Below are positions 3,278 to 56,646 of a stretch of DNA of 64,000 nucleotides, in pieces. Source of the stretch: a virus; the IMG/VR virus record IMGVR_UViG_3300027674_000001, positions 1 through 64,000 of that record; one strand, written 5' to 3'. The position numbers and the translations under genes were made by a program. The notes under the pieces were generated by a model that was not told the origin of the DNA, searched no databases, and saw nothing but the letters and a program-made list of their open reading frames with translations. The first letter of the stretch is position 1. Every line of letters begins with the position of its first letter.

Positions 3278-3317
3278 AGCCACGGGGTTGTGTACCGCCC
3301 GCCCCGTGGCTCTTTTT
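3278..3317 (+). terminator. Rho-independent terminator
   Basis: 10-bp stem AGCCACGGGG 3278-3287 / CCCCGTGGCT 3302-3311, followed by TCTTTTTC. Confidence 0.7.
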
Positions 3318-3374
3318 CGTCCAGCCAGCGCGTGGGTTCCGGGACGCGGTTCCGGGCCTAGGGCCTTGGGGTCC

Positions 3375-3403
3375 TTGACAGGGACCCCGGCCTGTGGTAA
3401 GGT
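3375..3403 (+). promoter_or_regulatory. Sigma70-type promoter P2 (conserved family)
   Basis: TTGACA 3375-3380, 17 nt, TGG-TAAGGT with the -10 at 3398-3403. 7-bp arms GGGGTCC 3368-3374 / GGACCCC 3382-3388 flank the -35. Confidence 0.65.
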
Positions 3404-3495
3404 GGAACCCGTGCTCAGTTGCTTGATAACGCGGTAGCGATGGGCCGAGGACGACTCGGTGGCATCTGAGCACAATTAAAAACGAGGTGACCCCC

Positions 3496-5671: not shown

Positions 5672-5997
5672 CAATCGACGAAGCCATCGCCCAGTGCGAT
5701 ATCCGCAATTACCGGAAAGATGTCAGATGGGTACCCAACCCCAATGAACCAGTCGAGTTTATCCCTGTGTACAGTGTAGATAGCGGCCAAGCAGATATCA
5801 GCGGGCCAACCGATGCACTATTAATGTTATTTATGTGCGGTGTAAGTAGTGTGGACGGTAATGATGTGATCCGCACTATCCGTACTCGTGACTATATATG
5901 TAATCCTGTAGATATCATGGTGATTAAGGTTGAGAGTACAACTGACAAAGAGTCAAGCCAAGGTAACATCATCTGGCGTCGGCCTACATCAGTATGA
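5668..5997 (+). CDS. Hypothetical protein
   Basis: 109-aa ORF with ATGA overlaps at both ends. Confidence 0.5.
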   Translation: MTIDEAIAQCDIRNYRKDVRWVPNPNEPVEFIPVYSVDSGQADISGPTDALLMLFMCGVSSVDGNDVIRTIRTRDYICNPVDIMVIKVESTTDKESSQGNIIWRRPTSV

Positions 5998-7418
5998 TAG
6001 TAGTCCCTGGTGCTGGCCGCCTACCTAACCTCGTGCTGCTTTGTGGGGAAGCTCCCGGCGCACAGGAAGCCGAGAAGGGAGAGCCATTTATAGGACGTAG
6101 CGGGCAAGAACAAAGCTGGTATTTATCCCGCCACAACCTTAACGTCCGCAACTGGTATCGTACCAACGTCTCGAAATGCTGGCATGGTGATAATCGCGAC
6201 CCCTCCCGCGAAGATATCGAGGAGTGGACTCCTGTACTCCTCTCCGAAATAGAACAATGCTCCCCCTCGCTCGTGATAGCAGTCGGGAGGTTCGCCGCTC
6301 GATTCTTCCTCGGGGAATCGGTAGAGATGGATATGGTTCACGGGCTACCCCATCGCCCCGGTGCCTTCGATCCCTCGCGTATATCCCGCGCGCCCAAGGG
6401 GTGTGTTATCCTGCCCGTGACGCACCCAGCTAGTGTCTTCCACGGCTCCGATGACAAGAAGAATGATATCCGGGCGCTGGTAGACTGGGATTACTCTCAG
6501 GCCGCGCAAGTGTTAGCTTTGATTAAATCCGGCCGCGCCCACGAGATAGACTACCGTGGTGACGAATATCCCAATCCGCACTATGAAGACGTATCGGGTC
6601 AATTCATCTCTGATTACATCGCCGCTAAAGTCACTCTCGGCGGGGTGCAATCCATGGCGCTTGACACCGAGGGAGTACCGGGCGCCGAGTGGTCTATACA
6701 GGTGAGCTTAGACCCAGGTGAGGGATTCTTACTCAGGTGCGCTCGCGATGACTTCCAGGTGGGGATAGCGGCATTACAGGAGGCGGTAGATAAAGGTATC
6801 TTGGTTATAACCCATGACGCCTCCACCCCTGCCGGCTGCTGCTACGATACCATCATGGCGCGCGGTATGGGGCTCGATTTATCCCGAGCATCCAACATCT
6901 TCAACACGATGACAGCGCTGTACCTATTACGTTTCGAGCCCCAAGGACTCAAGCCCGCAGCTTGGCGCTGGTGTGGCATGCGCATGACAGACTATGAGAG
7001 CCTAATCGGCGACATCGGCTACCGGAAGCAATTCGAGTACCTATGTAGGGTACTGGATTACCGAGATTCCCCTTGGCCTACAATTGAACCTCGAATGGTG
7101 CACGAACACGATGGCACCTCGCGCGTATATTCGCCCCATGGCATAGAGCAATCGGCCCGGAGTATCGTTCTCGATATCGCCAACGGTAAGCTAGACAAGG
7201 ACGGGAATCCGCCCGATCCGTGGAAGCGATGGAAGCAAGTCCTACCGGAGATTAGAGAGATTACCTCGCGGGTGCTAGGCCCCATGCCTACAGGTAATCT
7301 AGGGGATATACCTCTAGAGGACGCCACTATCTACGCAGCTAAAGATGCCGACGCTTCCTTACGACTGTATTACGCGCTGTCGGATGAATTGCGGCGACGG
7401 GATCTAACACAGGCATAA
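5994..7418 (+). CDS. Family-4 uracil-DNA-glycosylase-like domain fused to a PolA-type 3'-5' exonuclease domain (N-terminal part of a split DNA polymerase)
   Basis: UDG4-type motifs GEAPG..E...G.PF.GRSG and THPAS. Exonuclease motifs MALDTEG (ExoI) and YAAKDADAS (ExoIII). The ORF ends at the usual exo/pol domain boundary. Confidence 0.85.
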   Translation: MIVVPGAGRLPNLVLLCGEAPGAQEAEKGEPFIGRSGQEQSWYLSRHNLNVRNWYRTNVSKCWHGDNRDPSREDIEEWTPVLLSEIEQCSPSLVIAVGRFAARFFLGESVEMDMVHGLPHRPGAFDPSRISRAPKGCVILPVTHPASVFHGSDDKKNDIRALVDWDYSQAAQVLALIKSGRAHEIDYRGDEYPNPHYEDVSGQFISDYIAAKVTLGGVQSMALDTEGVPGAEWSIQVSLDPGEGFLLRCARDDFQVGIAALQEAVDKGILVITHDASTPAGCCYDTIMARGMGLDLSRASNIFNTMTALYLLRFEPQGLKPAAWRWCGMRMTDYESLIGDIGYRKQFEYLCRVLDYRDSPWPTIEPRMVHEHDGTSRVYSPHGIEQSARSIVLDIANGKLDKDGNPPDPWKRWKQVLPEIREITSRVLGPMPTGNLGDIPLEDATIYAAKDADASLRLYYALSDELRRRDLTQA

Positions 7419-7424
7419 ACAGAC

Positions 7425-8525
7425 ATGCCAGCTTACTACAACGAGATAGACCCATTCGTGGCCAATTGGCTAGAGTGGCTAGTTAAAGTTGAGATGATCG
7501 CGGATGGCGTGGTAGATAGGCGCTCTATCAAGGACGTTATGCCAAGTGACTTGAACGGGTTTACTCAGTGTCATTTCTTCGCGGGTATAGGCGGCTGGTC
7601 GTATGCGTTACGGTTGACTGGATGGCCCGATAATAGACCCGTGTGGACAGGCTCATGCCCATGTCAACCGTTCTCAGGTGCAGGGCTAATGCTGGGAGAG
7701 AATGATGATAGGCACCTCTGGCCAAGTTGGTTTGATCTCATTGCGCAGTGCCAACCTCCAATCATCTTTGGAGAACAAGTTGCAAGCCCGCCTGGACGTG
7801 AATGGCTCGATACTGTATCAGCTAATTTGGAAGCATTGGACTATGCCATCGGGGCGGCGGATCTGTGCGCTGCGGGCATCGGTGCCCCGCACATCAGGCA
7901 ACGGCTGTGGTTCGTGGCCGAGTCCACGAGCGACCGATACGGGGAGACGCGGATGGAAGCCGAGTCCCGGAGAGGGCAATGTACAACTCGACAGGATGGC
8001 AGCGATGTGGCTAGCGGGGTATCCAACACCAAACACCCGCGATCACCATGCACAGGGGGCAACCCACAACACGAAAGCTCAATCGTCGTCACTGGCAACA
8101 AAGTTAGAGAAGAAAGCGCGGCCTATGGGCTGGCCAACCCCGATGGCAGGAACACCGAAACAGAAGGGTTACAACGAAGCCGGCAACACGGACAGCAGCC
8201 GAAAGACGGTCGCACTATTATCAGGTTGGCCCACGACTCGTTCCAGCGATGCAGAGAAGAACGTGCGAACGATAGAAGGGAGCGCCCGCGAGATGGCAAG
8301 GAAGGGCACAGCGCAGGACTTGAACCAAGCGGCGACACTAACCTATGGGCCTTGTGCGAATGGCTCCCATACTCAGATGGTAGATCGCGGCCAGTTGAAC
8401 CCGGCACATTCCCGTTGGCTCATGGGATTCCCCGACGTGTGGGACGATTGCGCGGATATGGTAACGCGATAGTACCTCAAGTCGCCGCTGAGTTTATAGG
8501 TGCATATCTGGATACAGAACAATGA
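7425..8525 (+). CDS. DNA (cytosine-5)-methyltransferase with an anomalous reading-frame structure
   Basis: This frame carries motifs I FFAGIGG, IV PCQPFS, VI FGEQV, VIII QRLWF and X GNAIVPQV. The central third is Arg-rich and low-complexity, while the overlapping ORF 7702..8472 carries family-typical target-recognition motifs. See the finding on this gene. Confidence 0.7.
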   Translation: MPAYYNEIDPFVANWLEWLVKVEMIADGVVDRRSIKDVMPSDLNGFTQCHFFAGIGGWSYALRLTGWPDNRPVWTGSCPCQPFSGAGLMLGENDDRHLWPSWFDLIAQCQPPIIFGEQVASPPGREWLDTVSANLEALDYAIGAADLCAAGIGAPHIRQRLWFVAESTSDRYGETRMEAESRRGQCTTRQDGSDVASGVSNTKHPRSPCTGGNPQHESSIVVTGNKVREESAAYGLANPDGRNTETEGLQRSRQHGQQPKDGRTIIRLAHDSFQRCREERANDRRERPRDGKEGHSAGLEPSGDTNLWALCEWLPYSDGRSRPVEPGTFPLAHGIPRRVGRLRGYGNAIVPQVAAEFIGAYLDTEQ

Positions 8526-9802
8526 CTGGCCGCCACACCACCATGGAAGAGTGTATGGCGGTACTCCCGATATTCGAGGAGATGCAGCGGAATGGTATGC
8601 CCGCATCCCGATCATACTTCGAGGCCCTATCCGCCGAGATGTGGCAGCGTATGTCCACGGTTCAACGACGTATATCCACGGAATACTTCGATGGCCGCCC
8701 GTTCAATCCCAATTCCACCAAGCAAGTGGCAACCCTTCTCCGTCGTCGCGGACTCGTGGGGCATAAGCGGACCCAAGCGGGCGCTGTATCTACCTCCGAG
8801 AAGTCCATAGGGCACTTGCAATTCACGGACCCCGCGATTCATGACGTATTCGAGTGGCGGGAGTACGAGCATATCAAAGACGCATTCTGTCAACCCATCT
8901 TAGGTAAATTCGACCCCGCTAACCCGGACGATATCCAACCCATCCGGTGTGTTATCCGTACTACTCGCATCCCTACGCGGCGGATAGCTGCTAGTGACCC
9001 TAATCTACTCGCTATGCCGGTGCGCACCGAGGAAGGACGTAAAGTGCGAACCGGGTTCATATGCCCCGAGGGTGAGGTATTCGGAGCTTGGGACTACTCG
9101 CAATTAGAAATGCGCTGCATGGCGCACGAATCGCGCGACCCCCTCATGTGTCAACTGTTTTACGAGAATCGAGATATCCACACCGAGACAGCGGCTCGAA
9201 TATTCAAGATACCGCTAGATCAGGTAGATAAGTTCAAGCATCGTATCCCGGCGAAAAATTCGGGATTTGGAATTCTATATGGGATACAAGGCGAAGGACT
9301 GTTAACCCAACTCCGGATGCTCGGCATCGAGGGATGGACTAAAGAGTCTTGCCAAAAACTAATCGGTGACTGGTTGGACGTGTTCCAAGGAGTAAAAGAG
9401 TACATCGCGCGGACAGCGGTAGAGGTGGCGAAAGTCGGCTATGTGCGGGACTACTCAGGAGCCTATCGCTACATCCCTGGAATCCGCCACTACGACCGCA
9501 AGATAGCCGCAGAGGCCGCACGGTTAGCAGTGAGTCAACGTATCCAGGGCTTGGCGCAAACCATGATACAGCGAGCGATGATTTATCTCCGGCCCCAGAT
9601 ACGCTCTATGCAGGATAGTGGGCTTAACGTTAAGTGGCGCCTTCAAGTGCATGACGAATTACTTAAGTCGTTCACCCCGGACTTGTGGGAGCCATTAGAT
9701 TACATCGTCCGGGATGCGTTAGTTAACCACAGCGGGATAGAGTTAAGAGTGCCGATAGAGTGTGAAGGTAAGTACGCCTCTAGGTGGTCTGATCTTAAGT
9801 GA
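8522..9802 (+). CDS. Family-A DNA polymerase, polymerase domain only (C-terminal part of the split polymerase)
   Basis: Motif A DYSQLEMR, motif B RIPAKNSGFGILYG, motif C QVHDEL. The ATG overlaps the methyltransferase stop (ATGA). Confidence 0.9.
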   Translation: MTGRHTTMEECMAVLPIFEEMQRNGMPASRSYFEALSAEMWQRMSTVQRRISTEYFDGRPFNPNSTKQVATLLRRRGLVGHKRTQAGAVSTSEKSIGHLQFTDPAIHDVFEWREYEHIKDAFCQPILGKFDPANPDDIQPIRCVIRTTRIPTRRIAASDPNLLAMPVRTEEGRKVRTGFICPEGEVFGAWDYSQLEMRCMAHESRDPLMCQLFYENRDIHTETAARIFKIPLDQVDKFKHRIPAKNSGFGILYGIQGEGLLTQLRMLGIEGWTKESCQKLIGDWLDVFQGVKEYIARTAVEVAKVGYVRDYSGAYRYIPGIRHYDRKIAAEAARLAVSQRIQGLAQTMIQRAMIYLRPQIRSMQDSGLNVKWRLQVHDELLKSFTPDLWEPLDYIVRDALVNHSGIELRVPIECEGKYASRWSDLK

Positions 9803-9812
9803 GGTTAAGGCT

Positions 9813-10493
9813 ATGCCCTACGCTAATATAGAAGTTGGAAGAATGAAAGCCAGAGAGAGGTATCTCAGAAACAAGGAAGCTATTGACTCTGCATCAAGAG
9901 AATACTATTGGAAGAATAAAGAACGAATAAACTCCAAGAGGAGAAAACCAATCCAAAGTGCAAGCGAAAGAGCCGACCATTTAACTGCCAAACTAAGGGC
10001 TAGGTTCCAGAGTTACCTACGTCGTAATAAGGTAACTGGGTGCTTAGAGTGGATGGGCTATAAAGATGTTCACGGATATGGTAAACTGTGGATAGGTAGC
10101 CAGAAAGATGGCACCCTTAGAAAGGAAATGTCTCATCGCGTTGCGTGGATTCTAGCTGGTAAAGAGATTACACCAGAGAAACCATTTATCCTGCACAATT
10201 GCCCATGCGGCGACAATCCCTCGTGTTGCGAGATCGCGCATCTATGGGATGGCACAGCAGCAGACAATAATACCGATAGATCAAGAAAGGACAGAAGTAG
10301 ACGCAGTGAGCTAGGACTCCCTAGAGGTGTTCAACCAAATTACACTCAGAAGGAATCTTACCAAGCCCGTATTCAAGTGGGCAGTAAGCAAATCTACATC
10401 GGATCGTATAGCTCAATCGAAGAGGCTAGGCAAGCTGTAGAAGCTGCCGGCGGATGGAGACAAGAAGAGAGCGGCGGCGATGCCACCACGTAA
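9813..10493 (+). CDS. HNH homing endonuclease with a C-terminal AP2-like DNA-binding domain (free-standing mobile gene)
   Basis: GCLEWMGYKDVHGYG...SHRVAW...LHNCPCGDNPSCCEIAHLWDGTAADN is an HNH_3-type signature. YQARIQVGSKQIYIGSYSSIEEA is AP2-like. The gene is visibly AT-rich relative to its flanks. The start was moved to ATG 9813. Confidence 0.85.
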   Translation: MPYANIEVGRMKARERYLRNKEAIDSASREYYWKNKERINSKRRKPIQSASERADHLTAKLRARFQSYLRRNKVTGCLEWMGYKDVHGYGKLWIGSQKDGTLRKEMSHRVAWILAGKEITPEKPFILHNCPCGDNPSCCEIAHLWDGTAADNNTDRSRKDRSRRSELGLPRGVQPNYTQKESYQARIQVGSKQIYIGSYSSIEEARQAVEAAGGWRQEESGGDATT

Positions 10494-10635
10494 CCGTCAC
10501 CGCCACTCTATCCCCTCGCGCCGTCGTAATCGCGGGTACCGATTTCTCCCCCTCGTGGCGTCCGTGCTAAGTTGTCATCTTGTGATCTGGTCAACCCGTA
10601 GATCGGGGATTCTAGGCCCCCCAAGAAGACGGGCC

Positions 10636-10665
10636 TTGACAGGGACCCCCCGAGGATGGTAGTCT
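10636..10665 (+). promoter_or_regulatory. Sigma70-type promoter P3 (conserved family)
   Basis: TTGACA 10636-10641, 18 nt, TGG-TAGTCT with the -10 at 10660-10665. The flanking arms GGGCC/GGACC have one mismatch. Confidence 0.6.
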
Positions 10666-10674
10666 TTTGGGGCG

Positions 10675-14807: not shown

Positions 14808-14867
14808 CAACCGTACAACCGTACAACCGTACAACCGTACAACCGTACAACCGTACAATGTACAACG
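14808..14867. repeat. Tandem octamer repeat (CAACCGTA) x6 perfect, plus two degenerate units
   Basis: Perfect copies at 14808, 14816, 14824, 14832, 14840 and 14848, then CAATGTA and CAACG. Located in the intergenic gap ending about 20 nt before ATG 14889. Confidence 0.95.
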
Positions 14868-14888: not shown

Positions 14889-15632
14889 ATGAGCCAGACA
14901 TTTAACCCTCCCAAGTCCGTTGCCGAGTGCGCCGTCAACGCGGGGCTCGGCCGTACCCAGTGCATTAGTTACTTTACCCCCGATGGCATCCAAACCAAAT
15001 CCACCCTCGCTGGCACCATCGTCCCCGAGCATCATCTAGATTTCTCGGGGGATCGGCATGTGCTCGCCGATTCGATGGTGGCCCGCTATGGCAAGGGGCT
15101 TGGATTCCCGTGGGAGCACGCTACCCCTGGTAACCCTGTAGAGTTCACGCCCACTCCTGTCTACGCTTACGCGGGGGATTTAGACGAACTCAAATGGGGT
15201 GTGACGGGGATGGTGCTCACCGCCTTGCTGTTCGGTGGGTGGTTCGGGCGCAGCGGGCTAGTTCTCCCGTACACCCTCACCGTGGAGGACGCTGCTGATA
15301 TTCTCGTGCTGTGGGATTTAGCGGTGGCTCTGGGCCAGTCCTCTGGCGGTATCAGCAGCGTGGGAGGGGTGTCGATATTCCCGGCCGCCATCGTGGTGGA
15401 CACGCTCCCTACCGAAGGCGTCCTCACGGGTCAACCATACCAAGTCAAGTCCACGGGCGAAGTGTGGATCTATAACGGGACGAAGTGGAATAGTCAAGGG
15501 GTGCAAGGCGCGGGTGCAGCGGGTGGAACGGGCGCGGGCTCTGGCACCGTCTCACTCGCCACCCTCACTGCTGCCGTCGTGGGTATCCAAGCCCAGATGG
15601 CCACACTCAAGAAGAAACTGGGGATTAAGTAG
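14889..15632 (+). CDS. Hypothetical protein (247 aa) with a Gly/Ala-rich C-terminal region
   Basis: ORF with RBS GAAAGGTAGG. No family recognised. Confidence 0.6.
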   Translation: MSQTFNPPKSVAECAVNAGLGRTQCISYFTPDGIQTKSTLAGTIVPEHHLDFSGDRHVLADSMVARYGKGLGFPWEHATPGNPVEFTPTPVYAYAGDLDELKWGVTGMVLTALLFGGWFGRSGLVLPYTLTVEDAADILVLWDLAVALGQSSGGISSVGGVSIFPAAIVVDTLPTEGVLTGQPYQVKSTGEVWIYNGTKWNSQGVQGAGAAGGTGAGSGTVSLATLTAAVVGIQAQMATLKKKLGIK

Positions 15633-16257: not shown

Positions 16258-16323
16258 CGCCCGGGGTGGAATCGCTGTGGTGCCTGAGTGTGCCGGCCGG
16301 CGGGACCTCCCGGGCGTTTTCTT
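16258..16323 (+). terminator. Possible terminator (long-loop hairpin plus T-tract)
   Basis: CGCCCGGG 16258-16265 pairs with CCCGGGCG 16309-16316, followed by TTTTCTT. The large 43-nt loop makes this weak. Confidence 0.3.
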
Positions 16324-16374
16324 GTCTACTCAGTCGCTTCAATACTTCCGTGAGCTTGCCGGCCCCTCTAGTCC

Positions 16375-16404
16375 TTGACAGGGACCACCCGCGCGTGCTA
16401 CGCT
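16375..16404 (+). promoter_or_regulatory. Sigma70-type promoter P4 (conserved family)
   Basis: TTGACA 16375-16380, 18 nt, TGC-TACGCT with the -10 at 16399-16404. Followed by an about 270-nt leader before ATG 16677. Confidence 0.6.
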
Positions 16405-16676
16405 CAGTCTTTCCGGCACCGTGAATGGCGCGCCCAAGCGAACCCGATAACCTCGAGCCTGCACCTGTGATAGGTGGTACAGGCTCTCGATTATTCTGTT
16501 GCTATTGCCAAGTGTATGCTACCGTGCCACACCATTGCCCCGACCGAGTACACCATCTCGCTGGTATCCGTTACTCCTGCGCGCCATACAGATCCGCGAG
16601 TAGTAACCAGGTTGACATGTTCTCTGGCCGCCGATCGTTACACATGGGCGAGATGGATTAGAGCATAATATAGCCA

Positions 16677-19153: not shown

Positions 19154-20641
19154 ATGCCTATTGCACCTCGCTCTACTGTCGAGCCTGTGCCCCCTCTTAC
19201 CTACGCGGGTGCTATACAGGAATTATCTCGCGCCGATCAATGGCAAGCATCCCTAGCCCGAGACTCCCTCCGCGATTTCATCAAACAGAATTGGACAATC
19301 GTAGAGCCCATTAAGAAGCTTATCTGGAACTGGCATCACTATGTATTCTGCGATGTGTTAGAACAGATTACCGCTGGCAAGATACGACGTATCGTAATTA
19401 ACGTGCCCCCAGGTAGCTCGAAAAGTCTTTTTGCATCCGTTTTTTGGCCAGCGTGGGAATGGGCTAAAGATCCATCTCTCCGCTACCTAACCGCGTCCTA
19501 TACCGATGCCAACACCATCCGAGATAACCGTAACGTTAGATTCATCGTTACCTCGGATAACTACAAAAAGTATTACTGGGCCAACCCCACCCACGTAGAC
19601 TTGGTGGCACTCGACGCTGCCCAATCCGCCAAGATTCGATTTGACACCACCGCTAAGGGTTGGCGTATCGCTACCTCTGTCGGCGGCATCGGTACCGGCG
19701 AGCACCCTGACAGAATTATTATCGATGATCCGTTGAAGGCTAAGGATGCCGACTCCGATGTAGAGTTAGCCGCGTGTCAAACATGGTTCGACGGTACTAT
19801 CTCCACACGTGGCGCGAGCGAACGAATCGCGATAGTGGTAATCATGCAGCGGTTACATAGGAGAGATCTAAGCGGGTATCTATTGGGTAAGGGTGGCTGG
19901 GATCACTTAATGCTCCCGATGAGATTCGATCCCAAGCGGGCCGATCCAAGGGACATGAGAACCCAACCGGGCGAATTATTGTGGCCAGAGTTGTGGACGG
20001 AAGCGAAGGTGCGACAAGAGGAGATAGACCTAAACCAATTTGGGGCCTCGGGGCAGCTACAACAAGATCCAGTACCAGCCGGTGGTGGCCTATTCAAACG
20101 AGAGTGGTTTACATTCGTGGATCAATCACCAGCCCGGTGCCGCCGATGCCGAGGATGGGATACCGCAGACACCCCCGGCGGAGGCAACTGGACGGTTGGA
20201 ACTAGGTTAGGGTACGATGATGAAATGGGCGACACCTACATAGAGCACAACATCCGAGGGCAATGGGGGCCAGGTGAGGTATCTACTAATATCAAGATGG
20301 CAGCCGAAATGGACGGGGTAGCATGTCTTATTCGCGAGGGCAGCGGGAGTGGTAAGGCTACAACCGAGGCGAGGGGTAAGATGCTAGCCCGGTACGATTA
20401 CGCCGCTGCCCCCGAGACTACCAAGACGGGTAATAAGATTCAACGAGCTAGCCCATTCCGTGCGCAGTGTGAGCTGGGTAAGGTTAAGATAGTGAGAGGA
20501 CCGTGGAATGAAATGTATATTGATGTGTTGTGTTCGTTTCCTGTTGGGGTTGTGGATGATGACGTGGACAGTACGAGCAACGCGTATAATGGACTCGTGG
20601 GAGATATGGAAGCAATGGATGGATTAGGGGTGACATGGTGA
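19154..20641 (+). CDS. Terminase large subunit
   Basis: Walker A-like VPPGSSKS, Walker B-like RIIIDDP, then the IVVIMQRLH segment and a C-terminal nuclease-like region typical of TerL. ATG 19154 is the first start after the upstream stop. Confidence 0.85.
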   Translation: MPIAPRSTVEPVPPLTYAGAIQELSRADQWQASLARDSLRDFIKQNWTIVEPIKKLIWNWHHYVFCDVLEQITAGKIRRIVINVPPGSSKSLFASVFWPAWEWAKDPSLRYLTASYTDANTIRDNRNVRFIVTSDNYKKYYWANPTHVDLVALDAAQSAKIRFDTTAKGWRIATSVGGIGTGEHPDRIIIDDPLKAKDADSDVELAACQTWFDGTISTRGASERIAIVVIMQRLHRRDLSGYLLGKGGWDHLMLPMRFDPKRADPRDMRTQPGELLWPELWTEAKVRQEEIDLNQFGASGQLQQDPVPAGGGLFKREWFTFVDQSPARCRRCRGWDTADTPGGGNWTVGTRLGYDDEMGDTYIEHNIRGQWGPGEVSTNIKMAAEMDGVACLIREGSGSGKATTEARGKMLARYDYAAAPETTKTGNKIQRASPFRAQCELGKVKIVRGPWNEMYIDVLCSFPVGVVDDDVDSTSNAYNGLVGDMEAMDGLGVTW

Positions 20642-20657
20642 AAGGAGAACTACTTCG

Positions 20658-20846
20658 ATGGACAACGTTGAACGGTTGAAACTGTACCCCCATCTGGTCG
20701 ATGAGTTGATAGCGCAAGTGGACGATTTACTTATCAACGAGGATTGCCCATGTGCGCGTACACATCGCCACCCATGCCCACGATGTAAGGTAACTATCGT
20801 GCAAGCACAGGAATTACTTCGGCGGCTCTGGTACAGGCGAGGGTAA
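20658..20846 (+). CDS. Hypothetical small protein
   Basis: 62-aa ORF after TerL with CPCA...CPRC Cys pairs. Confidence 0.45.
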   Translation: MDNVERLKLYPHLVDELIAQVDDLLINEDCPCARTHRHPCPRCKVTIVQAQELLRRLWYRRG

Positions 20847-20854
20847 TCTGGTCC

Positions 20855-20884
20855 TTGACACGGGCGCGGGCTCCGTGCTACGCT
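20855..20884 (+). promoter_or_regulatory. Sigma70-type promoter P5 (conserved family, 3' arm degenerate)
   Basis: TTGACA 20855-20860, 18 nt, TGC-TACGCT with the -10 at 20879-20884. Confidence 0.6.
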
Positions 20885-20892
20885 CGCCCACA

Positions 20893-20979
20893 ATGACCCT
20901 GCGACGGTTCTTCGGCAAGTCTCCCCCGCTGGTAGGGCGCCCCTCTCCCGTCCTGATGACCAGCGGGGGAGCTTTTTAA
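20893..20979 (+). CDS. Candidate 28-codon leader micro-ORF spanning the terminator hairpin
   Basis: ATG 20893 lies 9 nt after the P5 -10 element. The ORF reads through both arms of the hairpin and stops at TAA 20977-20979, inside the T-tract. Purely positional evidence. Confidence 0.25.
   Translation: MTLRRFFGKSPPLVGRPSPVLMTSGGAF
20921..20977 (+). terminator. Rho-independent terminator/attenuator
   Basis: 13-bp stem CTCCCCCGCTGGT 20921-20933 / ACCAGCGGGGGAG 20959-20971, followed by CTTTTT. Confidence 0.7.
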
Positions 20980-21008
20980 TTTCACCCCGTCAACCCTTGT
21001 CAATCCGC

Positions 21009-21422
21009 ATGCGCATCCCCGACATCAACGTAGTCGTCAACTTCTCCGAAGAGGACCGGGATTTAATCCGCTCGGTACTCATCGGGCTAACCAGACTGGA
21101 GATCCTAATGTCAAAGAATACCGATGCACTCGCCGCCTTGGAAGCCATTGAAACCACTCTCGCCGCCGATGAGGCTCTAGAAGAGAGCGACCTTACCGCG
21201 TTGACCGCTGAGGTTACCGCGTTGAAGGCTCAGCTGGCCACCGCCACCGCCGAAGATAACTCCGCTGAGATCGCCACGACTACGGCCGCGATTACTGCAT
21301 TGGATGCCAAGATCAAGGCGAGTATTGCAGCGGCGCAGGGAGCACTACCGCCAGCGCCACCCGTGACCCCTCCTGCTACAATATTGCCGCAGGGTATTGA
21401 CAAGGGGCGCGCTCCGGCCTAG
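21009..21422 (+). CDS. Ala-rich coiled-coil protein
   Basis: ORF with ATG 21009 (TTG 20997 is an alternative start). Long Ala/Leu/Thr heptad-like region and a Pro-rich tail. Confidence 0.5.
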   Translation: MRIPDINVVVNFSEEDRDLIRSVLIGLTRLEILMSKNTDALAALEAIETTLAADEALEESDLTALTAEVTALKAQLATATAEDNSAEIATTTAAITALDAKIKASIAAAQGALPPAPPVTPPATILPQGIDKGRAPA

Positions 21423-21432: not shown

Positions 21433-21804
21433 ATGAGCAGCTTCCTTTCCGCCGCCGCCGAGCAGCACCTCGCCCGCCTACAGCGAATCGTCTCCGCGGA
21501 GCGCATGTTGCGAGAGTACCCTGATCGATGCATGGCAATGAGGATGGCACTAGGGATGAAACGTCCTGCGCTCGCGGAAGCATTGGGAGTGACAGATGAC
21601 ACCATCGCGAACCGAGAGACGGGACGCCATTCACCTGTAGGGGAAGCAGCGGTGGCTCATCTTGAATACCTAGAGCGAGCCATCGAGATAACCCATACAC
21701 CTAGAGCAAGGGTCGAGGCAATCTATCGGGAGCTTTACATGGCGCGCGGTGGACCACCTCGAATACCGCGAGAGAGAACGAGCTACAATGAATGCTCCCG
21801 ATAA
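21433..21804 (+). CDS. XRE-family helix-turn-helix regulator, probably on a leaderless mRNA
   Basis: MKRPALAEALGVTDDTIANRETG is a classic XRE HTH. ATG 21433 lies 8 nt after the -10 element and has no Shine-Dalgarno sequence. Confidence 0.65.
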   Translation: MSSFLSAAAEQHLARLQRIVSAERMLREYPDRCMAMRMALGMKRPALAEALGVTDDTIANRETGRHSPVGEAAVAHLEYLERAIEITHTPRARVEAIYRELYMARGGPPRIPRERTSYNECSR

Positions 21805-32269: not shown

Positions 32270-32302
32270 CCCACACGTTATACTAAGGGAGGTACGCAAC
32301 TC

Positions 32303-32761
32303 ATGGGCGCGACATTCGATATCAAGGTAGTTAAGGGCAACCGGGCGGTACAATATCACCCCACCCACATTGCTGAGAAAAACGTATGGCCAAATTCCCC
32401 CGCTGGCCGCCGTTATCTTGCCATGCTGGATATGACGGAGGTGCAGGTACAGGAAGCTATCGATGACGGTGAAATCGGGGAGGCACCCGGCACCTACATT
32501 GAACTCTGCGGACTCGATAAGCGCCTATTTCCCACTGGCGGCTTTACCGTGCATATATCTGGTGGTAACCACGATAACCCCGAGTGTATACCCGCTGATG
32601 TAGTGTACTCGCTCAGAGACAATGGTGATACCAAGGACAAGTGGCCCAGTGCAGCCATGCGAGCCCAGCTAGAAATGGTAAAGGCTGGATGGCGCCCTGA
32701 TCGCGGTGAGGCTATGCCCGAGAGTCCAGAGCCCGAAGTAGCAGAGGGGGTGGCACCGTGA
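32303..32761 (+). CDS. Hypothetical structural-module protein
   Basis: 152-aa ORF with RBS AAGGGAGG. Confidence 0.5.
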   Translation: MGATFDIKVVKGNRAVQYHPTHIAEKNVWPNSPAGRRYLAMLDMTEVQVQEAIDDGEIGEAPGTYIELCGLDKRLFPTGGFTVHISGGNHDNPECIPADVVYSLRDNGDTKDKWPSAAMRAQLEMVKAGWRPDRGEAMPESPEPEVAEGVAP

Positions 32762-34632: not shown

Positions 34633-34913
34633 ACGTGATAGCTACTCATATACTTGACAAGATAGACGCCGCGGATACTCTCGGCATCCCTGGTGCCTTC
34701 CAATTCGAGGCAAACGATAAAGGGATATTTTATGTTTGCCCGTGCGGTTGTCAATCATTGGGGTTTCTTGGATTTCGTGGACTTGAGGACAAGGAGCGGC
34801 CATCTTGGGAGTGGGATGGGAACAGGGAGAAGCCAACGCTATCGCCCAGTATATTGCGGCGGGCTTGCGGATGGCACGGGTTCTTACGTGGTGGTGCATG
34901 GGAGTCTTGTTAA
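34629..34913 (+). CDS. Small zinc-binding protein (DUF6527-like)
   Basis: CPCGC...W.WDGN.EKPTLSPSI...C.WHGFLR.G pattern. The family name is from memory and unverified. Confidence 0.45.
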   Translation: MNVIATHILDKIDAADTLGIPGAFQFEANDKGIFYVCPCGCQSLGFLGFRGLEDKERPSWEWDGNREKPTLSPSILRRACGWHGFLRGGAWESC

Positions 34914-34940
34914 CGTAATACTAAGGGAGGGATATAACCG

Positions 34941-35861
34941 ATGCGAGTACATGTCAAGCCGACCGGGTTACATAGCAGAGCCATGGTGCGGGTATCTAAT
35001 GCACTAACCCGTTACGCGCCCACGGGGATAGAGATAGTAGATGACCCGAGCCCGAGTGAATGTGATCTAGTGGTGTTACATGTGATCGGGCGGGATGCGA
35101 TTACGGTAGCTGAGCAGATGAATCAATGCGAGCAGAGATGGGCGGTGATCCAATATTGCCTAAAAACGGCGGGGTTTAGCCGAGAGACTTGTAAAGACTG
35201 GTTTGAGTTGTGGCGCGGCGCTGAGTGCTTGTGGAGCTACTATGATCTATCCGATGCGGCTAGCGTGGACGGATGGGATTTCTACTACGCTCCCCTCGGT
35301 CTAGACGATGCATTCCTATCTCGCTCCCACATCTCCTCCCCATCTTCTCGCCCATTCATCCTCACGTCCGGTTATGTCTCTGGCCCCGGTGCAGAACCCA
35401 TTGCCGAGGTGTGGGAGGCCGCGCGTAGACTGGGGATTAATGCCGTGCATATTGGCCCTAAAGTAGTAGAGGGGATGACAACGTATCCACCCGATTGGGA
35501 CGCGCGCCACCAGATATCCGATGGGGAGTTAGCCGAGTTGTATGCGCGGGCTACTTGGGTGGCCGCCCTTCGACATGTAGAGGGATTCGAGTTGCCCGCG
35601 GCGGAAGGACTCGCGTGTGGCGCTCGCCCCATCGTATTTTCTCAGCCCGCGCTATGGCACTGGTATGGTGACCATGCGATATACGTCCTCGATCAAAGCG
35701 GGGAGCCTCTGATTCAAGAACTGTGCAAGGTAATGAGGTATGTACCGGAGCCTGTAAGCGCCAAGGAGCACGAACAGGTAGTACGGAAATTCAACTGGGA
35801 GCGAGTGTGTACCGGGTTCTGGGCGCGAGTGCAAGCTAGCATAGGCGAGGTAGCCGCGTGA
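34941..35861 (+). CDS. GT-B fold glycosyltransferase (GT4-like)
   Basis: C-terminal signature VEGFELPAAEGLACGARPIVF matches the E(G)FG.P..EA.A.G.P motif of GT4 enzymes. Confidence 0.6.
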   Translation: MRVHVKPTGLHSRAMVRVSNALTRYAPTGIEIVDDPSPSECDLVVLHVIGRDAITVAEQMNQCEQRWAVIQYCLKTAGFSRETCKDWFELWRGAECLWSYYDLSDAASVDGWDFYYAPLGLDDAFLSRSHISSPSSRPFILTSGYVSGPGAEPIAEVWEAARRLGINAVHIGPKVVEGMTTYPPDWDARHQISDGELAELYARATWVAALRHVEGFELPAAEGLACGARPIVFSQPALWHWYGDHAIYVLDQSGEPLIQELCKVMRYVPEPVSAKEHEQVVRKFNWERVCTGFWARVQASIGEVAA

Positions 35862-39860: not shown

Positions 39861-39919
39861 CACAGGTTAACCATAACCTTTAACCCCAATCGTCTTACTA
39901 AGGAAGGTAGGCACCGCTC

Positions 39920-40375
39920 ATGGCAACTCGTAAGAAGGTAACGAAGCGCGTCACTCCCATCTCAGCTGGCCCTCGCACCCTCTCCGCACGTGATCTCCGC
40001 ATCAGCCAGAAGCTAACCCCCATCCACGTTCCCGAGTACGGCGGCATCGTGTACAAGCGGGAGCTTCCTGCGTCCGTTATGATCTCCCGCCCGGCTGTAG
40101 CCGATCCCAACGACCCCATTCAGCAACAAAACACCGTCTCATACTTCATCTGTAAGTCGATCGTTGACGAGAACGGTAACCAGATTTTCGCCGACGAAGA
40201 GGCAGACACGCTCCGGGACATCCTCAGCATCTCTGTCTATACCCTATTCACCCAAGCCGTTACGGGTTCCGGTGGTGCCGCCGGTACTGCTGGACTCTCT
40301 CTCACCGATAAGGATGGCGGTGCACTCCCAAACGATTCTACGGCAACCCGCTCCTCCGATTCGGATACAGACTAG
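39920..40375 (+). CDS. Tail assembly chaperone (gpG-like)
   Basis: Position between the major tail and tape measure genes. Contains a slippery heptamer near its 3' end. Confidence 0.6.
   Translation: MATRKKVTKRVTPISAGPRTLSARDLRISQKLTPIHVPEYGGIVYKRELPASVMISRPAVADPNDPIQQQNTVSYFICKSIVDENGNQIFADEEADTLRDILSISVYTLFTQAVTGSGGAAGTAGLSLTDKDGGALPNDSTATRSSDSDTD
40327..40333 (+). other. Candidate -1 programmed frameshift heptamer C CCA AAC
   Basis: X XXY YYZ pattern in the G frame (codons CTC CCA AAC), 40 nt before the G stop. The -1 frame is open from at least 40321 into ORF 40390..40821. Confidence 0.5.
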
Positions 40376-52740: not shown

Positions 52741-55548
52741 ATGTCAATACCACGTAGAATCGTCCTCGCTCTTCCTCTCGCCCTAGCCCTGTTCGCCGGT
52801 ATCCCCGCTTCCTCTCTCTGGGGCCAGATTTGCCCTCAACCCATTACTCTCCGCGCCGGTACATGTCTCGCTGGTACCACCTCATGCTCGACTAAAGGTA
52901 ACACTCTCACCTTCTCCGATATGGACGCGAATCTTATAGATGTCGATGCCCTGTGTAACTCTCTCGTCCCTGCTACTCCCACCACTCGCGGTATCTCCGT
53001 CCAATCAATCACGTACAACGTCAAGGACCCAACTTACGGTGCCCTAGGTGACGGTGTAACCAATGACACCGCTGCAATCCAAGCAGCCATTACCGCTGCG
53101 GGTATAGCAGGAGGCGGTACCGTCTACATCCCCGAGGGCACCTATAAGATATCAACCCTCACATCTACCGCGTTGGGTGTGTACATCATGGGGGCTGGCA
53201 ACAACGCAACCACCCTCACATCCACCGCCACCACCGGAGATATCATCGCATTTGGCAATATCTCCTCAGCCTACACTCCCTGTGGTGGCCTTCGTAACGT
53301 CGCGATTAAGTCCAGTGTCACCCGTACATCTGGCGCCGCTCTCACCATCGACGGTTGCCAGAATGGGTGGTTTGAAGGGTTATTCATCGCTCCCACCCAC
53401 GGTGACGGTATCCATATCGCCCCTACCAACCATCTCGCCGCCAACCTCTTCATCCGAGATAGTATAATCAATCTCACGGGCAACGGGTTCGTAGGTATCC
53501 TAATCCAAGGCGGTAATGATAGATTCATTCGCTCCCTATCGATCGATGGGGGGCTCGGTACTGGTGGCGCTGCCATCGAAATCCAGAACTCTGGCGGTGA
53601 TTGGGTCACTGACACCGAAACCGCGCGATTCGACTATGGGGTGTGGATCAACCCTGGTACAGGACAATCCGTCACTTGGGGCAACATGTATAACGTTCTC
53701 GCCGACACCAACAATATCAACGGGATTAGGATCGCGGCGACGGGCTCCGGGTCTATCTCTGCCGAAACGTTTACATCCGTCTGGACGAGTACGAATGGAC
53801 CCGGAGTGGCGACAGGGCGAGGCATCTACATAGGTGGCGGTGCAGCCGGTCTAACCTTCATCGCTCCCCGAGTCATCAACAATGGCGGCCACGGTATCGA
53901 GATTGCCGGGAGTACTGGAATAACCATCTCGGGCGCACGAGTATCGAGCAACGGGCAAGCCGCGAGTAATACGTACGACGCTATCAACGTCAATTCCTCC
54001 GTTGGGTTCTTTAGAATCCAAAACAGCGATCTACCGGGCGCGGGCGCATCATTCTCCGCTGGCCAACGCTACGGAGTAAATATCGCTGCCGGCTCCGATA
54101 ACTACATGGTAACGGGTAACGATTTAACCGGGAACATGTCTGGGGGGGTGTTCAATGCCCCTGGCCTCGCTGCCACCCGTAAGGTATGCGGTAATTTACC
54201 GTTTGACGCTACGTGTGTGGATCTCCCCCCATCCGCCAGCGTCACCGATGCCATGCTGGTCAGTGGGTATTCCGGGGTAGGCGCGTGCGGGAGCCATACA
54301 TGGGCTAGCACCCTCAATCGTAACGCTATCCAAACCTGTACCCAACCTAACTACACTGATCTAACGGGGGTATTACCCAACCCTAGCGCATCCACCCTCG
54401 GCGGTATCGAGTCCCTAGCCGCTGTCGCGAGTAAATGGATTAACACTATTTCTACCAGTGGCGTACCGAGTGCAACCCAACCAGCGTTTACCGATATCTC
54501 CGGTACAGTGGGCGCGGGCCAACTACCCAACCCTTCAGCATCTACTCTAGGTGGAGTACAATCCTTGGCATCCTCGGCATCCAAGTGGATTAATCAGATA
54601 TCCACGAGCGGTGTACCGAGTGCTACTCAGCCCGCTTTCACCGATATATCTGGTGTAGCAACTGGGGCACAGCTACCTAACCCATCGGCTACTACACTAG
54701 GCGGTGTTGAGTCCTTGGCTACCGTAGCCTCGAAATGGATTAACACCATCTCCACCTCCGGTGTACCAAGTGCAACTCAACCAGCATTCACGGACATTAG
54801 CGGTGCCGCGTCCACCGCTCAAATCCCTTCGGTGGTATTCGCATCCGGCACCGACACTGTAACCAATACTTCCACCCAAGTCCACATCACCAATACCGAT
54901 GCGTCGGCTAACCCGCCATTCTTCTACTGTACCCACAATCGTAGTGCGGGGCCTCTCTTGGGTGGCGACGGGGTATGTGGATTATATGGGGATTTTCTAA
55001 ACAGTGCCTCCGCTACTAAGGAAGCGTTCTACATCCACGGTAACGTTGTCAGCCCTACATCTGGCTCTGAGACGGCACAGGTGCTATTCGATGTCATGGG
55101 CGGGGGTGGTACGGTTGGATCGGTAGCGTCTATGCTCACGTTGGCGGGCGGCGCATCACCAATAAATACTCTAACGGGCCACCTAGTCTCTGGTGCAGTT
55201 AGCACTAATCCCACCGTGGCATGCACTGGCACCGGCACATCCCCACCCGCTCCATCTATCGCCGGTACCGATACAGCGTTTATTATCACGATGAACACTG
55301 GTACCGCGCCGAGTAGTTCCGGCACATGCACTACTACATTCGCGCACGCCTACGTAACCAATGCCCCCGTTATGGCGTGTATGCTGGTGTCGGGTGCGAG
55401 CGCTTGGGGGAATACGGCATCGTTGGAATTAACCACCGAGAGCGTATCCGCGCCGGTGTTGACATGGACTAATGCTGTAGCGGGGGTACTCGGGATACTT
55501 ACAGGATCGTCAAGTTACAAGATGAGTTGTATTATCGTGGGTCGATAA
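52741..55548 (+). CDS. Tailspike/depolymerase-like protein with a pectate-lyase-3-type beta-helix
   Basis: YNVKDPTYGALGDGVTNDTAAIQAAI...GGGTVYIPEGTYKIS is the Pectate_lyase_3 N-terminal signature. 935 aa, last gene of the plus-strand structural block. Confidence 0.8.
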   Translation: MSIPRRIVLALPLALALFAGIPASSLWGQICPQPITLRAGTCLAGTTSCSTKGNTLTFSDMDANLIDVDALCNSLVPATPTTRGISVQSITYNVKDPTYGALGDGVTNDTAAIQAAITAAGIAGGGTVYIPEGTYKISTLTSTALGVYIMGAGNNATTLTSTATTGDIIAFGNISSAYTPCGGLRNVAIKSSVTRTSGAALTIDGCQNGWFEGLFIAPTHGDGIHIAPTNHLAANLFIRDSIINLTGNGFVGILIQGGNDRFIRSLSIDGGLGTGGAAIEIQNSGGDWVTDTETARFDYGVWINPGTGQSVTWGNMYNVLADTNNINGIRIAATGSGSISAETFTSVWTSTNGPGVATGRGIYIGGGAAGLTFIAPRVINNGGHGIEIAGSTGITISGARVSSNGQAASNTYDAINVNSSVGFFRIQNSDLPGAGASFSAGQRYGVNIAAGSDNYMVTGNDLTGNMSGGVFNAPGLAATRKVCGNLPFDATCVDLPPSASVTDAMLVSGYSGVGACGSHTWASTLNRNAIQTCTQPNYTDLTGVLPNPSASTLGGIESLAAVASKWINTISTSGVPSATQPAFTDISGTVGAGQLPNPSASTLGGVQSLASSASKWINQISTSGVPSATQPAFTDISGVATGAQLPNPSATTLGGVESLATVASKWINTISTSGVPSATQPAFTDISGAASTAQIPSVVFASGTDTVTNTSTQVHITNTDASANPPFFYCTHNRSAGPLLGGDGVCGLYGDFLNSASATKEAFYIHGNVVSPTSGSETAQVLFDVMGGGGTVGSVASMLTLAGGASPINTLTGHLVSGAVSTNPTVACTGTGTSPPAPSIAGTDTAFIITMNTGTAPSSSGTCTTTFAHAYVTNAPVMACMLVSGASAWGNTASLELTTESVSAPVLTWTNAVAGVLGILTGSSSYKMSCIIVGR
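54373..54822 (+). repeat. Three tandem 150-bp (50-aa) repeats inside the tailspike gene
   Basis: LPNPSA(S/T)TLGG(I/V)(E/Q)SLA..ASKWIN.ISTSGVPSATQPAFTDISG units start at 54373, 54523 and 54673. Confidence 0.9.
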
Positions 55549-55727: not shown

Positions 55728-55928
55728 TCACTGTGTCTCCCTCCCAACCATTCGCCGTGTCACCCTAGCCGCCTTCTCCCGGAGACTCGTTACCGCTTTA
55801 TCCCGTGACGCCCTACCAGCGGTATAGCAAGCCAACCCATACGCGAGTATGAGGGTACCGAAGTAGACTAACTCGGCAGAGTGGAGTATGGTGATGATTG
55901 AGCCCATGGGAATTATCCTCCTAGTCAT
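55728..55928 (-). CDS. Small membrane protein (about 60-66 aa), first gene of the leftward transcript
   Basis: Hydrophobic LVYFGTLILAYGLACY segment. The minus-strand ATG at 55928 lies 6 nt after the P7 -10 element (leaderless option). The alternative ATG at 55907 is preceded by AGGAGG. Confidence 0.5.
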   Translation of the reverse strand: MTRRIIPMGSIITILHSAELVYFGTLILAYGLACYTAGRASRDKAVTSLREKAARVTRRMVGRETQ

Positions 55929-55933
55929 GTCTG

Positions 55934-55963
55934 ACACTACCTCACGGGGAGAGTCCCTGTCAA
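55934..55963 (-). promoter_or_regulatory. Sigma70-type promoter P7 (conserved family, leftward)
   Basis: On the minus strand: TTGACA (complement of 55958-55963), 18 nt, TAGTGT (complement of 55934-55939). Arms GAGTCC 55951-55956 / GGACTC 55964-55969. Confidence 0.55.
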
Positions 55964-56000
55964 GGACTCCCATTCGTCCACTACACCACTGCGGCCGCCG

Positions 56001-56020
56001 CTTGTGAAACTTGTCACAAG
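56001..56020. promoter_or_regulatory. Candidate operator palindrome between the divergent promoters
   Basis: CTTGTGA-aacttg-TCACAAG, perfect 7-bp inverted arms, located between P7 and P8. Confidence 0.4.
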
Positions 56021-56060
56021 CTGGTCAGCACCGGGGCACGTGGGCGCGTCTTGGGGGGCC

Positions 56061-56089
56061 TAGACAGGGACCCCCTTCTGTGGTACGCT
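56061..56089 (+). promoter_or_regulatory. Sigma70-type promoter P8 (conserved family, -35 variant TAGACA)
   Basis: TAGACA 56061-56066, 17 nt, TGG-TACGCT with the -10 at 56084-56089. Confidence 0.55.
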
Positions 56090-56095
56090 CCTCCT

Positions 56096-56530
56096 ATGCC
56101 CCGCTCCAGCGCTGCCGCGACCCTCGCTCTCGAGCCCGAGCCCGATATTCTCTCCCTCTCTCTCGCGCGCGTACCACCCATCGCCTTAGCCGCTGCTACA
56201 CCCGTGGCGGCTGCTGGAGCGGGCCATGACTCCCCTCTCTTGCTCATCGCCGAGCTAGACCATGTAATCGCGGAGATGACGTACCATGGGCTGTCCCGGG
56301 CCACGGGGTTGAGTCGGAGCCATATCACCGGGATACTCAAGGGCCGGCGGAATTGCACCGTGGCCTATGCGGAGAGGTTGGCGGTAGGACTCGGGGTGAG
56401 TACGGCTGAGCTATTGGCATACTCGGGGGCTAAGAGGGTAGGCTACCTGGCTACCTTGAACGGTGGCAGGGCTGGCGGTAAGAAGGCTGGTAAGGCTCCC
56501 GGTAAGTCCCGTCGTAAACGGGCCAGATAG
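56096..56530 (+). CDS. XRE-like helix-turn-helix regulator, probably leaderless
   Basis: LSRATGLSRSHITGILKGRRNCTVAYAERLAVGLGVSTAELL is HTH_XRE-like. ATG 56096 lies 7 nt after the -10 element. Basic C-terminal tail. Confidence 0.6.
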   Translation: MPRSSAAATLALEPEPDILSLSLARVPPIALAAATPVAAAGAGHDSPLLLIAELDHVIAEMTYHGLSRATGLSRSHITGILKGRRNCTVAYAERLAVGLGVSTAELLAYSGAKRVGYLATLNGGRAGGKKAGKAPGKSRRKRAR

Positions 56531-56616
56531 CCCCTAGATAACTTTCTCGCCGTAACCAAAGTCTCAATGATGCCATACACTTACGAGGAATTGAGCGATT
56601 TGGGGGTTGAGGGTCC

Positions 56617-56646
56617 TTGACAGGGACCCTGGACGGGGGGTACTCT
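56617..56646 (+). promoter_or_regulatory. Sigma70-type promoter P9 (conserved family)
   Basis: TTGACA 56617-56622, 18 nt, TACTCT 56641-56646. 7-bp arms AGGGTCC 56610-56616 / GGACCCT 56624-56630. Confidence 0.6.

Follow-up and report, generated by a model that had tools for sequence, protein, structure and literature searches.

We analysed a 125-bp unit on the plus strand of an uncultured phage genome, IMG/VR record IMGVR_UViG_3300027674_000001; the whole stretch of DNA studied, positions 1 to 64,000 of that record (64 kb), is called the window. In this unit a promoter (P5), a 28-codon micro-open reading frame (micro-ORF) and a strong terminator-like hairpin (T5) follow each other closely between the last gene of the terminase operon and a gene for a coiled-coil orphan protein of 137 amino acids (aa), which lacks both a Shine-Dalgarno (SD) sequence and a promoter of its own. 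Further downstream a second promoter, P6, lies within the 3' end of the 137-aa gene, ~540 bp beyond P5, and precedes a gene for a helix-turn-helix (HTH) protein. The coordinates are collected in Table 1.

All long ORFs of the window are on the plus strand, and its G+C content is ~55%. It encodes the large terminase, a portal protein, a split DNA polymerase, methyltransferases and many orphan genes. At two other junctions of plus-strand genes a terminator comes first and a promoter of the same family as P5 follows ~55 nt later. Only at P5 is this order reversed, with the promoter placed between the last stop codon (20846) and the terminator.

Table 1. Features of the P5-T5 unit and of the genes around it
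Feature	Position	Strand	Description
Promoter P5	20850..20884	+	Flank GGTCC; -35 TTGACA at 20855-60; 18-nt spacer; TG at 20876-77; -10 TACGCT at 20879-84
P5 spacer motif GGCGCGGGCTCCG	20863..20875	+	Common to the P6 spacer (21406-21416); candidate operator, putative function
Predicted transcription start	20890 or 20892 (A)	+	6-8 nt after the -10; placed by the usual sigma-70 spacing
Micro-ORF MTLRRFFGKSPPLVGRPSPVLMTSGGAF	ATG 20893-95 to TAA 20977-79	+	28 codons; spans both T5 arms; stop in the T-tract; no SD
Terminator hairpin T5	20918..20973	+	13-bp outer stem, 6-bp inner stem, 9-nt loop, then C-TTTTT
T5 tail CTTTTTAATTT	20972..20982	+	C, then TTTTT at 20973-77
Large terminase gene	19106/19154..20641	+	PHROG 38, E = 1e-77
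62-aa gene	20658..20846	+	Final gene of the terminase operon; product small, with a CxC...CPRC zinc-type domain
137-aa gene	21009..21422	+	Coiled-coil orphan, directly downstream of T5; no SD, no own promoter
Promoter P6	21397..21435, including ATG	+	TTGACA-17-TAGAAT, 11/12 consensus
XRE-type HTH gene	21433..21804	+	Leaderless; ATG 7 nt after the P6 -10; PF13560

P5 and the promoter family of the phage

The -35 and extended -10 elements of P5 had been located in an earlier note on this DNA, made from the letters alone, and the sequence contains them where that note placed them. Near-identical sister promoters lie at 2634, 3375, 10636, 16375, 56061 and 56617 on the plus strand and at 55963 on the minus strand. 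The family has the form (G)GGTCC-TTGACA-GGGACC...TGgTAnnnT with a spacer of 17-18 nt, and the sites as a whole cover 2627-2665, 3368-3405, 10628-10670, 16367-16405, 56054-56090, 56610-56646 and, on the minus strand, 55963-55925.

We scored P5 with a position matrix trained on eight other promoters of the phage (the seven near-identical ones and that at 21397), P5 itself being held out. P5 scores 20.7 and ranks fourth among all sites on both strands. It falls among the seven near-identical training sites, which score 19.7-22.1, whereas 30 shuffles give 13.9 at best. P5 is intergenic, lying after the stop at 20846 and before the following gene. P4 (16375) has exactly the same flanks, TCTnGTCCTTGACA and GTGCTACGCTC, with a different spacer, a pattern that would be expected under selection for recognition. 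Because of the held-out score, the flanks identical to P4 and the presence of a promoter at the same place in two metagenomic relatives (L004 and L167), we treat P5 as real: as far as its sequence tells, it is a genuine promoter and a member of the sigma-70-type family of the phage. A search of IMG/VR with the promoter motif gave 30 single hits, a few of which (L181, L189 and L192) look like true sister promoters; none of the 30 has a promoter-terminator pair.

In the sister promoters the -35 hexamer sits inside an inverted repeat, GGGTCC-TTGACA-GGGACCC, which may serve a phage or host factor as operator. The repeat is incomplete at P5, where the left arm GGTCC is kept and the right arm is replaced by CGGGCG. 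P5 has its spacer motif, GGCGCG-N0-2-CTCCG, in common with P6 instead: the pattern GGCGCG-N0-3-CTCCG has three matches in the window (0.2 expected; 0 of 100 shuffles reach three), in the spacers of P5 and P6 and at 2367-2379. Its presence in both P5 and P6 suggests that one regulator acts on the two promoters, and the HTH protein whose gene follows P6 is a possible candidate.

At 5-6 other promoters of the phage a start codon stands 5-9 nt after the -10 element and opens a real gene; two HTH regulators, at 21433 and 56096, are among these leaderless genes. Hence the host presumably translates leaderless messenger RNAs (mRNAs). Two of the family promoters, at 55963 (-) and 56061 (+), are divergent, each with an ATG 5-6 nt after the -10, and open a leaderless 66-aa gene on the minus strand and a leaderless gene for a 144-aa HTH protein (56096..56530). 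The layout of this region (55900-56530) resembles a lambda-like cro/cI switch and suggests, by analogy, that the phage is temperate or takes a lysis-lysogeny-type decision.

P5 is not the sole promoter here with a structured leader, since the predicted leaders of P2 (93 nt, hairpin region 3408-3472, -34.1 kcal/mol, z = -2.65) and P4 (121 nt, hairpin region 16455-16490, -40.1 kcal/mol, z = -2.25) are structured too. Both lack a proper T-run, and their hairpins may be 5' stabilising stem-loops.

T5 is an exceptional hairpin with a short T-run

The outer stem of T5 is a perfect 13-bp helix, CTCCCCCGCTGGT at 20921-33 paired with 20959-71. It encloses an inner stem of 6 bp (20934-39 with 20949-54), closed by the 9-nt loop CCCCUCUCC at 20940-48; a 4-nt bulge lies at 20955-58, and two extra base pairs form between 20918-19 and 20972-73. 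The 13-bp stem followed by C-TTTTT that the earlier note had described is present as such, and the hairpin is longer than it had stated, by the six inner pairs.

The outer stem is the only perfect inverted repeat of at least 11 bp, with a loop of 3-30 nt, in the 64-kb window, and no perfect inverted repeat in 20 shuffles is longer than 11 bp. With -35.9 kcal/mol T5 is the strongest terminator-like hairpin on either strand of the window, and the 101-nt fold around it has -43.5 kcal/mol (z = -3.7). A consensus terminator scanner caught only the inner, 5-pair part, the full loop being above its limit. The G+C-rich hairpin followed by a T-run, outside long genes, points to an intrinsic (Rho-independent) terminator, with transcript release itself as a prediction.

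Only two other clean intergenic terminators are found on the plus strand, at 3279-3318 and 16258-16323. Each closes a gene cluster and has a long G+C stem; the tail is C-TTTTT in the first and TTTTCTTG in the second. The C-TTTTT form of the T5 tail matches that at 3279-3318 and that of the terminator in the relative L004; the terminator at 16258-16323 has a recognisable counterpart in L004.

The minus strand has no T-run after the hairpin; T5 is therefore one-directional, and a bidirectional terminator is ruled out. An antisense promoter is ruled out as well, the minus-strand TTGACA at 21003 having no usable -10.

Termination as the expected default and proposed read-through for the 137-aa gene

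In the predicted P5 transcript the hairpin begins ~30 nt after the start and the T-run is reached at ~+85; the folded RNA has a 30-nt single-stranded 5' end and a stable hairpin at its other end. The leader folds to no better than -15.3 kcal/mol when its 3' arm is blocked, versus -39.3 kcal/mol with the terminator. No prefix of the transcript stably sequesters the 5' arm of T5, and the prefixes that precede the 3' arm fold weakly. An alternative-structure attenuator or riboswitch is rejected, there being no competing antiterminator fold of comparable stability. Given a strong promoter and a terminator without a competing fold, the default outcome is expected to be termination, which would yield a hairpin RNA of ~88 nt with its 3' end in the T-tract at ~20977-80. 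A tRNA, transfer-messenger RNA or tRNA-like element is no candidate for the unit, as ARAGORN found none in the window.

The 137-aa ORF has a codon log-likelihood of +56.7 in frame versus -103 and -69 out of frame, and these statistics reject the idea that it is a false gene; no homologues of its product were found. No promoter is found between 20980 and 21009, and the gene has no SD, unlike most genes here. Since it is coding and yet promoterless, it would have to be expressed by read-through of T5, and T5 could then not be absolute. The dependence of 21009..21422 on read-through, proposed in the earlier note, is upheld by both properties.

The micro-ORF is probably incidental

The micro-ORF exists as described before: the A of its ATG is the 9th base after the -10, and the 28-codon frame stops within the T-tract. 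The predicted P5 start would leave a leader of 1-3 nt before this ATG. Such a frame does not rise above chance: 44% of the window positions open at least 28 codons without a stop, this stretch is open in a second frame as well, and 9% of 5-position windows contain an ATG. The codon log-likelihood is -0.9, versus +3.3 for another frame, and the Pro-Pro codons at 20923-28 are a direct consequence of the C-run of the stem. A real small protein is rejected, since the frame lacks a coding signal and its product shows neither hydrophobic nor other recognisable features.

Hence, we suggest that the micro-ORF is probably incidental, perhaps the stump of a leaderless gene that once stood behind P5, like the one in L004. 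Its AUG, at the predicted P5 start, would probably be used all the same, given the leaderless starts elsewhere in the phage.

The unit in relatives

By exact-protein look-ups, seven metagenome assemblies, each ~69.7 kb long, carry the genotype of the unit, and at least one of them is labelled as soil metagenome. Among three assemblies that were compared with the window two are 100% identical to it and the third has two gap openings and no mismatches; all three are identical across the unit. Cultured phages give no DNA match, and their best terminase identity is 39%. IMG/VR holds no close relative by terminase protein or by hairpin pattern. The nearest prophage terminases, of 43-50% identity, are from Acidobacteriota and Vicinamibacterales metagenome-assembled genomes.

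The nearest metagenomic relative is L004. Its terminase (6001-8568, 855 aa, 76% identity) contains, unlike that of the window, an intein with a LAGLIDADG endonuclease (PF14890, PF14528). Directly after this terminase, overlapping its stop codon, L004 has a promoter, and the GTG of a leaderless 380-aa gene follows 6 nt after the -10. The junction has the promoter and lacks the terminator. L167 has a promoter directly after its terminase too. The content of the junction is entirely different in terminase relatives of 48-76% identity, among them L004, L165, L166, L167 and L017, and by this comparison the terminase-portal junction is a gene-turnover hotspot in all relatives examined.

A promoter-then-terminator pair also occurs ~650 nt upstream of the terminase genes in two alphaproteobacterial prophages (Aquibaculum and Fodinicurvata; L094 6284-6375 and L139 4716-4805) and is conserved between both. 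By analogy this pair may be a late control unit of the lambda PR'-tR' type.

Proposed function of the unit

Our preferred reading, to which we give a probability of about 0.45, is that the unit acts as a promoter-proximal attenuator and at the same time as an insulator between operons, with a short RNA made by default. The proposed course of transcription is the following.

Step 1: T5 would close the P4 operon, which extends from 16375 to the terminase and the 62-aa gene. The last stop codon of the operon is 74 nt upstream of the hairpin, so that trailing ribosomes could not disturb termination. At a large distance from an upstream stop codon, a terminator reaches its full efficiency (PMC4824070), and because of the distance of 74 nt we apply this result to the transcripts that arrive from the 62-aa gene.

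Step 2: P5 would fire into T5, mainly yielding the ~88-nt hairpin RNA. A terminator that lies in the first 100 bp of an ORF retains most of its efficiency (PMC4824070), and T5 would stop most, and not all, of the transcripts.

Step 3: The fraction that reads through T5, from P5 and from upstream, would be the sole mRNA source for the 137-aa gene.

Step 4: The strong promoter P6 would restart transcription for the HTH gene and the rest of the accessory block.

Several observations weigh against this reading. The T-run has only five T after the C, and T5 may be much leakier or tighter than assumed. With leaderless starts at 5-6 other promoters, the position of the ATG at the start of the P5 transcript may be more than a coincidence. 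The motif common to the P5 and P6 spacers hints at regulation outside a passive model. Finally, no relative examined has a homologous unit, and all seven carriers represent one genotype.

Alternative explanations

The ~88-nt RNA could itself be functional, as a trans-acting small RNA (sRNA) that pairs via its 5' end or its loop with host or phage mRNAs, in the manner of lambda oop, P22 sar and C-rich-loop sRNAs; we consider this unlikely. It would be made from its own strong promoter up to a strong terminator in an intergenic region, and its fold combines a stable hairpin at the end with an unpaired 5' tail. Moreover, the C-rich loop is anti-SD-like, complementary to the GGAGG-type SDs of most phage genes. 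However, the longest exact complement in the phage is 14 nt, at 55809-55822, a length that 2% of shuffled queries reach. This site is on the strand antisense to the only gene there and therefore is not a ribosome-binding site, and the remaining complements, of 9-11 nt, are at chance level. Rfam has no match for the unit at the gathering score; relaxed thresholds give only unrelated families with E = 3.5 and E = 5.9. A functional sRNA would also leave the expression of the promoterless 137-aa gene unexplained. From the sRNA of roughly 90 nt that the earlier note offered as an alternative, the RNA remains as the expected default product, its promoter and terminator being well supported, and any function of its own is putative.

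The 14-nt site is an exact inverted copy, CGCCCTACCAGCGG, of T5 positions 20926-20939 and falls within the 66-aa gene of the minus strand.

Lambda oop and P22 sar, two short phage RNAs, each have a promoter and a terminator of their own and are antisense to an adjacent gene. The unit shares with them the compact promoter-to-terminator organisation of <100 nt in a phage genome. Unlike theirs, its RNA overlaps no gene on the opposite strand, and the exact-complement scan gives no convincing target in the phage.

It is fairly improbable that the two elements are a juxtaposition without function, in which T5 is a plain operon-end terminator, P5 a silent or repressed promoter or the decaying remnant of a cassette that lost its leaderless gene by deletion, and the RNA noise. 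The junction is a turnover hotspot, the equivalent promoter of L004 drives its leaderless gene directly, and of the inverted repeat found in its sisters P5 no longer has the right arm GGGACC. Nevertheless, its recognition positions are intact and identical to those of P4 next to a diverged spacer, which speaks for selection rather than decay, and the 137-aa gene still needs a source of transcripts.

Improbable, too, is a translation-coupled attenuator similar to that of pyrBI. Here 70S ribosomes on the near-leaderless AUG would cover the 5' arm, so that P5 transcripts read through T5 when translation is fast and transcripts from upstream terminate. The frame covers both arms and stops in the T-tract, its ATG is 1-3 nt from the predicted start, start codons stand close behind the -10 at 5-6 other promoters and at the post-terminase promoter of L004, and the gene beyond T5 depends on read-through. 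Terminators are indeed blocked when a ribosome follows the polymerase at a short distance (PMC5021804; PMC4824070). In the pyrBI (pyrL) leader of E. coli, as here, an ORF runs through the terminator hairpin, and a closely following ribosome could block the hairpin (PMC5021804, PMC4824070).

In contrast to the unit, pyrL has an SD and UTP-sensitive pausing in a U-rich stretch. The micro-ORF would be leaderless, being open is its one support, and nothing comparable to the pausing is seen: positions 20891-20920 contain no U-rich tract or stable pause hairpin and the prefix fold has -2.5 kcal/mol, elemental pauses not being reliably predictable. There is also no run of regulatory codons, and the ORF is indistinguishable from chance and without coding signal. 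The closest experimental case is W48 of Li et al. (2015) in E. coli, where the terminator lies within a short ORF, 30 bp behind the AUG and 16 bp ahead of the stop, and lost only ~10% of its efficiency through translation (PMC4824070). According to these authors, 100-200 nt pass before the first ribosome has caught up with the polymerase, except where a pause site brings both into step, as in pyrBI (PMC4824070). The geometry of the unit is nearly identical, with the hairpin 28 nt after the ATG and the stop in the T-tract; W48, however, has an SD-led ORF and the lambda tR2 terminator in E. coli, and the host and its kinetics may differ here. The melting of T5 by ribosomes, the other alternative of the earlier note, is geometrically possible and fits the start codons 5-9 nt after the -10 elsewhere, and it is weakened by an ORF without statistical or coding signal and by the small loss at W48.

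A special form of this idea, promoter-selective bypass, appears very unlikely. T5 would be closed to transcripts of the terminase operon and open to P5 transcripts, on whose leaderless AUG a 70S ribosome would load at once and then shadow the polymerase, keeping the hairpin from forming. If this were true, the open state would be tied to the translational capacity of the cell, and the SD-less 137-aa gene would be translated by reinitiation 29 nt after the micro-ORF stop.

Lambda PR'-tR', the source of the 6S RNA, is a promoter with a short-range terminator controlled by the Q antiterminator. The unit resembles it in the strong sigma-70 promoter, the close intrinsic terminator, the short default RNA, the need of downstream genes for read-through and the small gene that ends directly upstream of the promoter. 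In a factor-dependent processive antitermination of this kind a phage protein would load at P5 and make the polymerase resist T5; the accessory block, and perhaps the structural genes too, would be turned on in this way. The candidates would be the 62-aa zinc protein, placed as Q is relative to PR', or the HTH protein after P6. A strong promoter with a strong terminator within 90 nt ahead of a long one-directional gene array would suit this mechanism, as would the distinct spacer motif common to P5 and P6 only, the gene for the small zinc-type protein that ends 8 nt before the -35, and the -10-like CACAAT at 20888-93 (4/6 match to TATAAT), which overlaps the predicted start site. We nevertheless regard it as highly unlikely, since no Q, N or other antiterminator family was found with PHROGs (~40 proteins) and Pfam (10 proteins) over 59-24174 (55.5-64 kb not scanned; most proteins are orphans), the near-consensus P6 only 540 bp further on means that the downstream genes do not need P5, the terminase is upstream of the unit and not downstream as in lambdoid late operons, the closest relative L004 has the promoter without terminator, and the model of the 62-aa protein is of low confidence. 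The distance also differs, being ~88 nt here and 194 nt in lambda.

In structure, therefore, the unit may be likened to PR'-tR', to pyrBI and to oop/sar alike. The component that defines each mechanism was not found: a Q protein in the family scans, an evident pause element in 20891-20920 or a convincing target in the phage.

Neighbouring genes and other features of the window

The 62-aa gene at the end of the terminase operon has an SD, AGGAG, 7 nt upstream. Its product shares N27, C30, C32, P39, C40, R42 and C43 with 19 remote homologues and belongs to an uncharacterised family, without match to Pfam or PHROG families; the confidence of its structure model is low (predicted local distance difference test, pLDDT, 64).

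A family-A DNA polymerase is apparently split into 5994..7418 and 8522..9802 (both phrog_17). A DNA methyltransferase gene (7425..8525) lies between the halves, and an HNH endonuclease gene (9762..10493) follows. In the gap before the ORF 14889..15632, at 14808-14866, an 8-bp unit CAACCGTA is repeated 7.5 times in tandem; this iteron-like array may be a replication origin or a protein-binding array. A block of ~20 nt, ACGT(T/A)ATACTAAGGGAGG, is found directly upstream of three structural-gene starts (32275-32305, 34913-34943 and 39890-39920). It comprises more than an SD and may be a late-gene translational or processing signal. Inside the gene for a 935-aa tail protein (52741..55548) a 150-bp unit is repeated 2.4 times (54433-54791, 72% matches).

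Implications

Promoter-proximal terminators and short phage RNAs are a well-known class, which the unit would extend without changing the current understanding. Being compact and self-contained, the 125-bp unit would offer a natural test of whether leaderless translation rescues a terminator within the first 100 nt. If the attenuator and insulator reading is true, an uncultured soil phage, probably of an Acidobacteriota-like host, separates its terminase operon from a fast-evolving accessory block by this unit: T5 would insulate the block, and P5 would give a short RNA together with a small, possibly tunable supply of message for the orphan gene.

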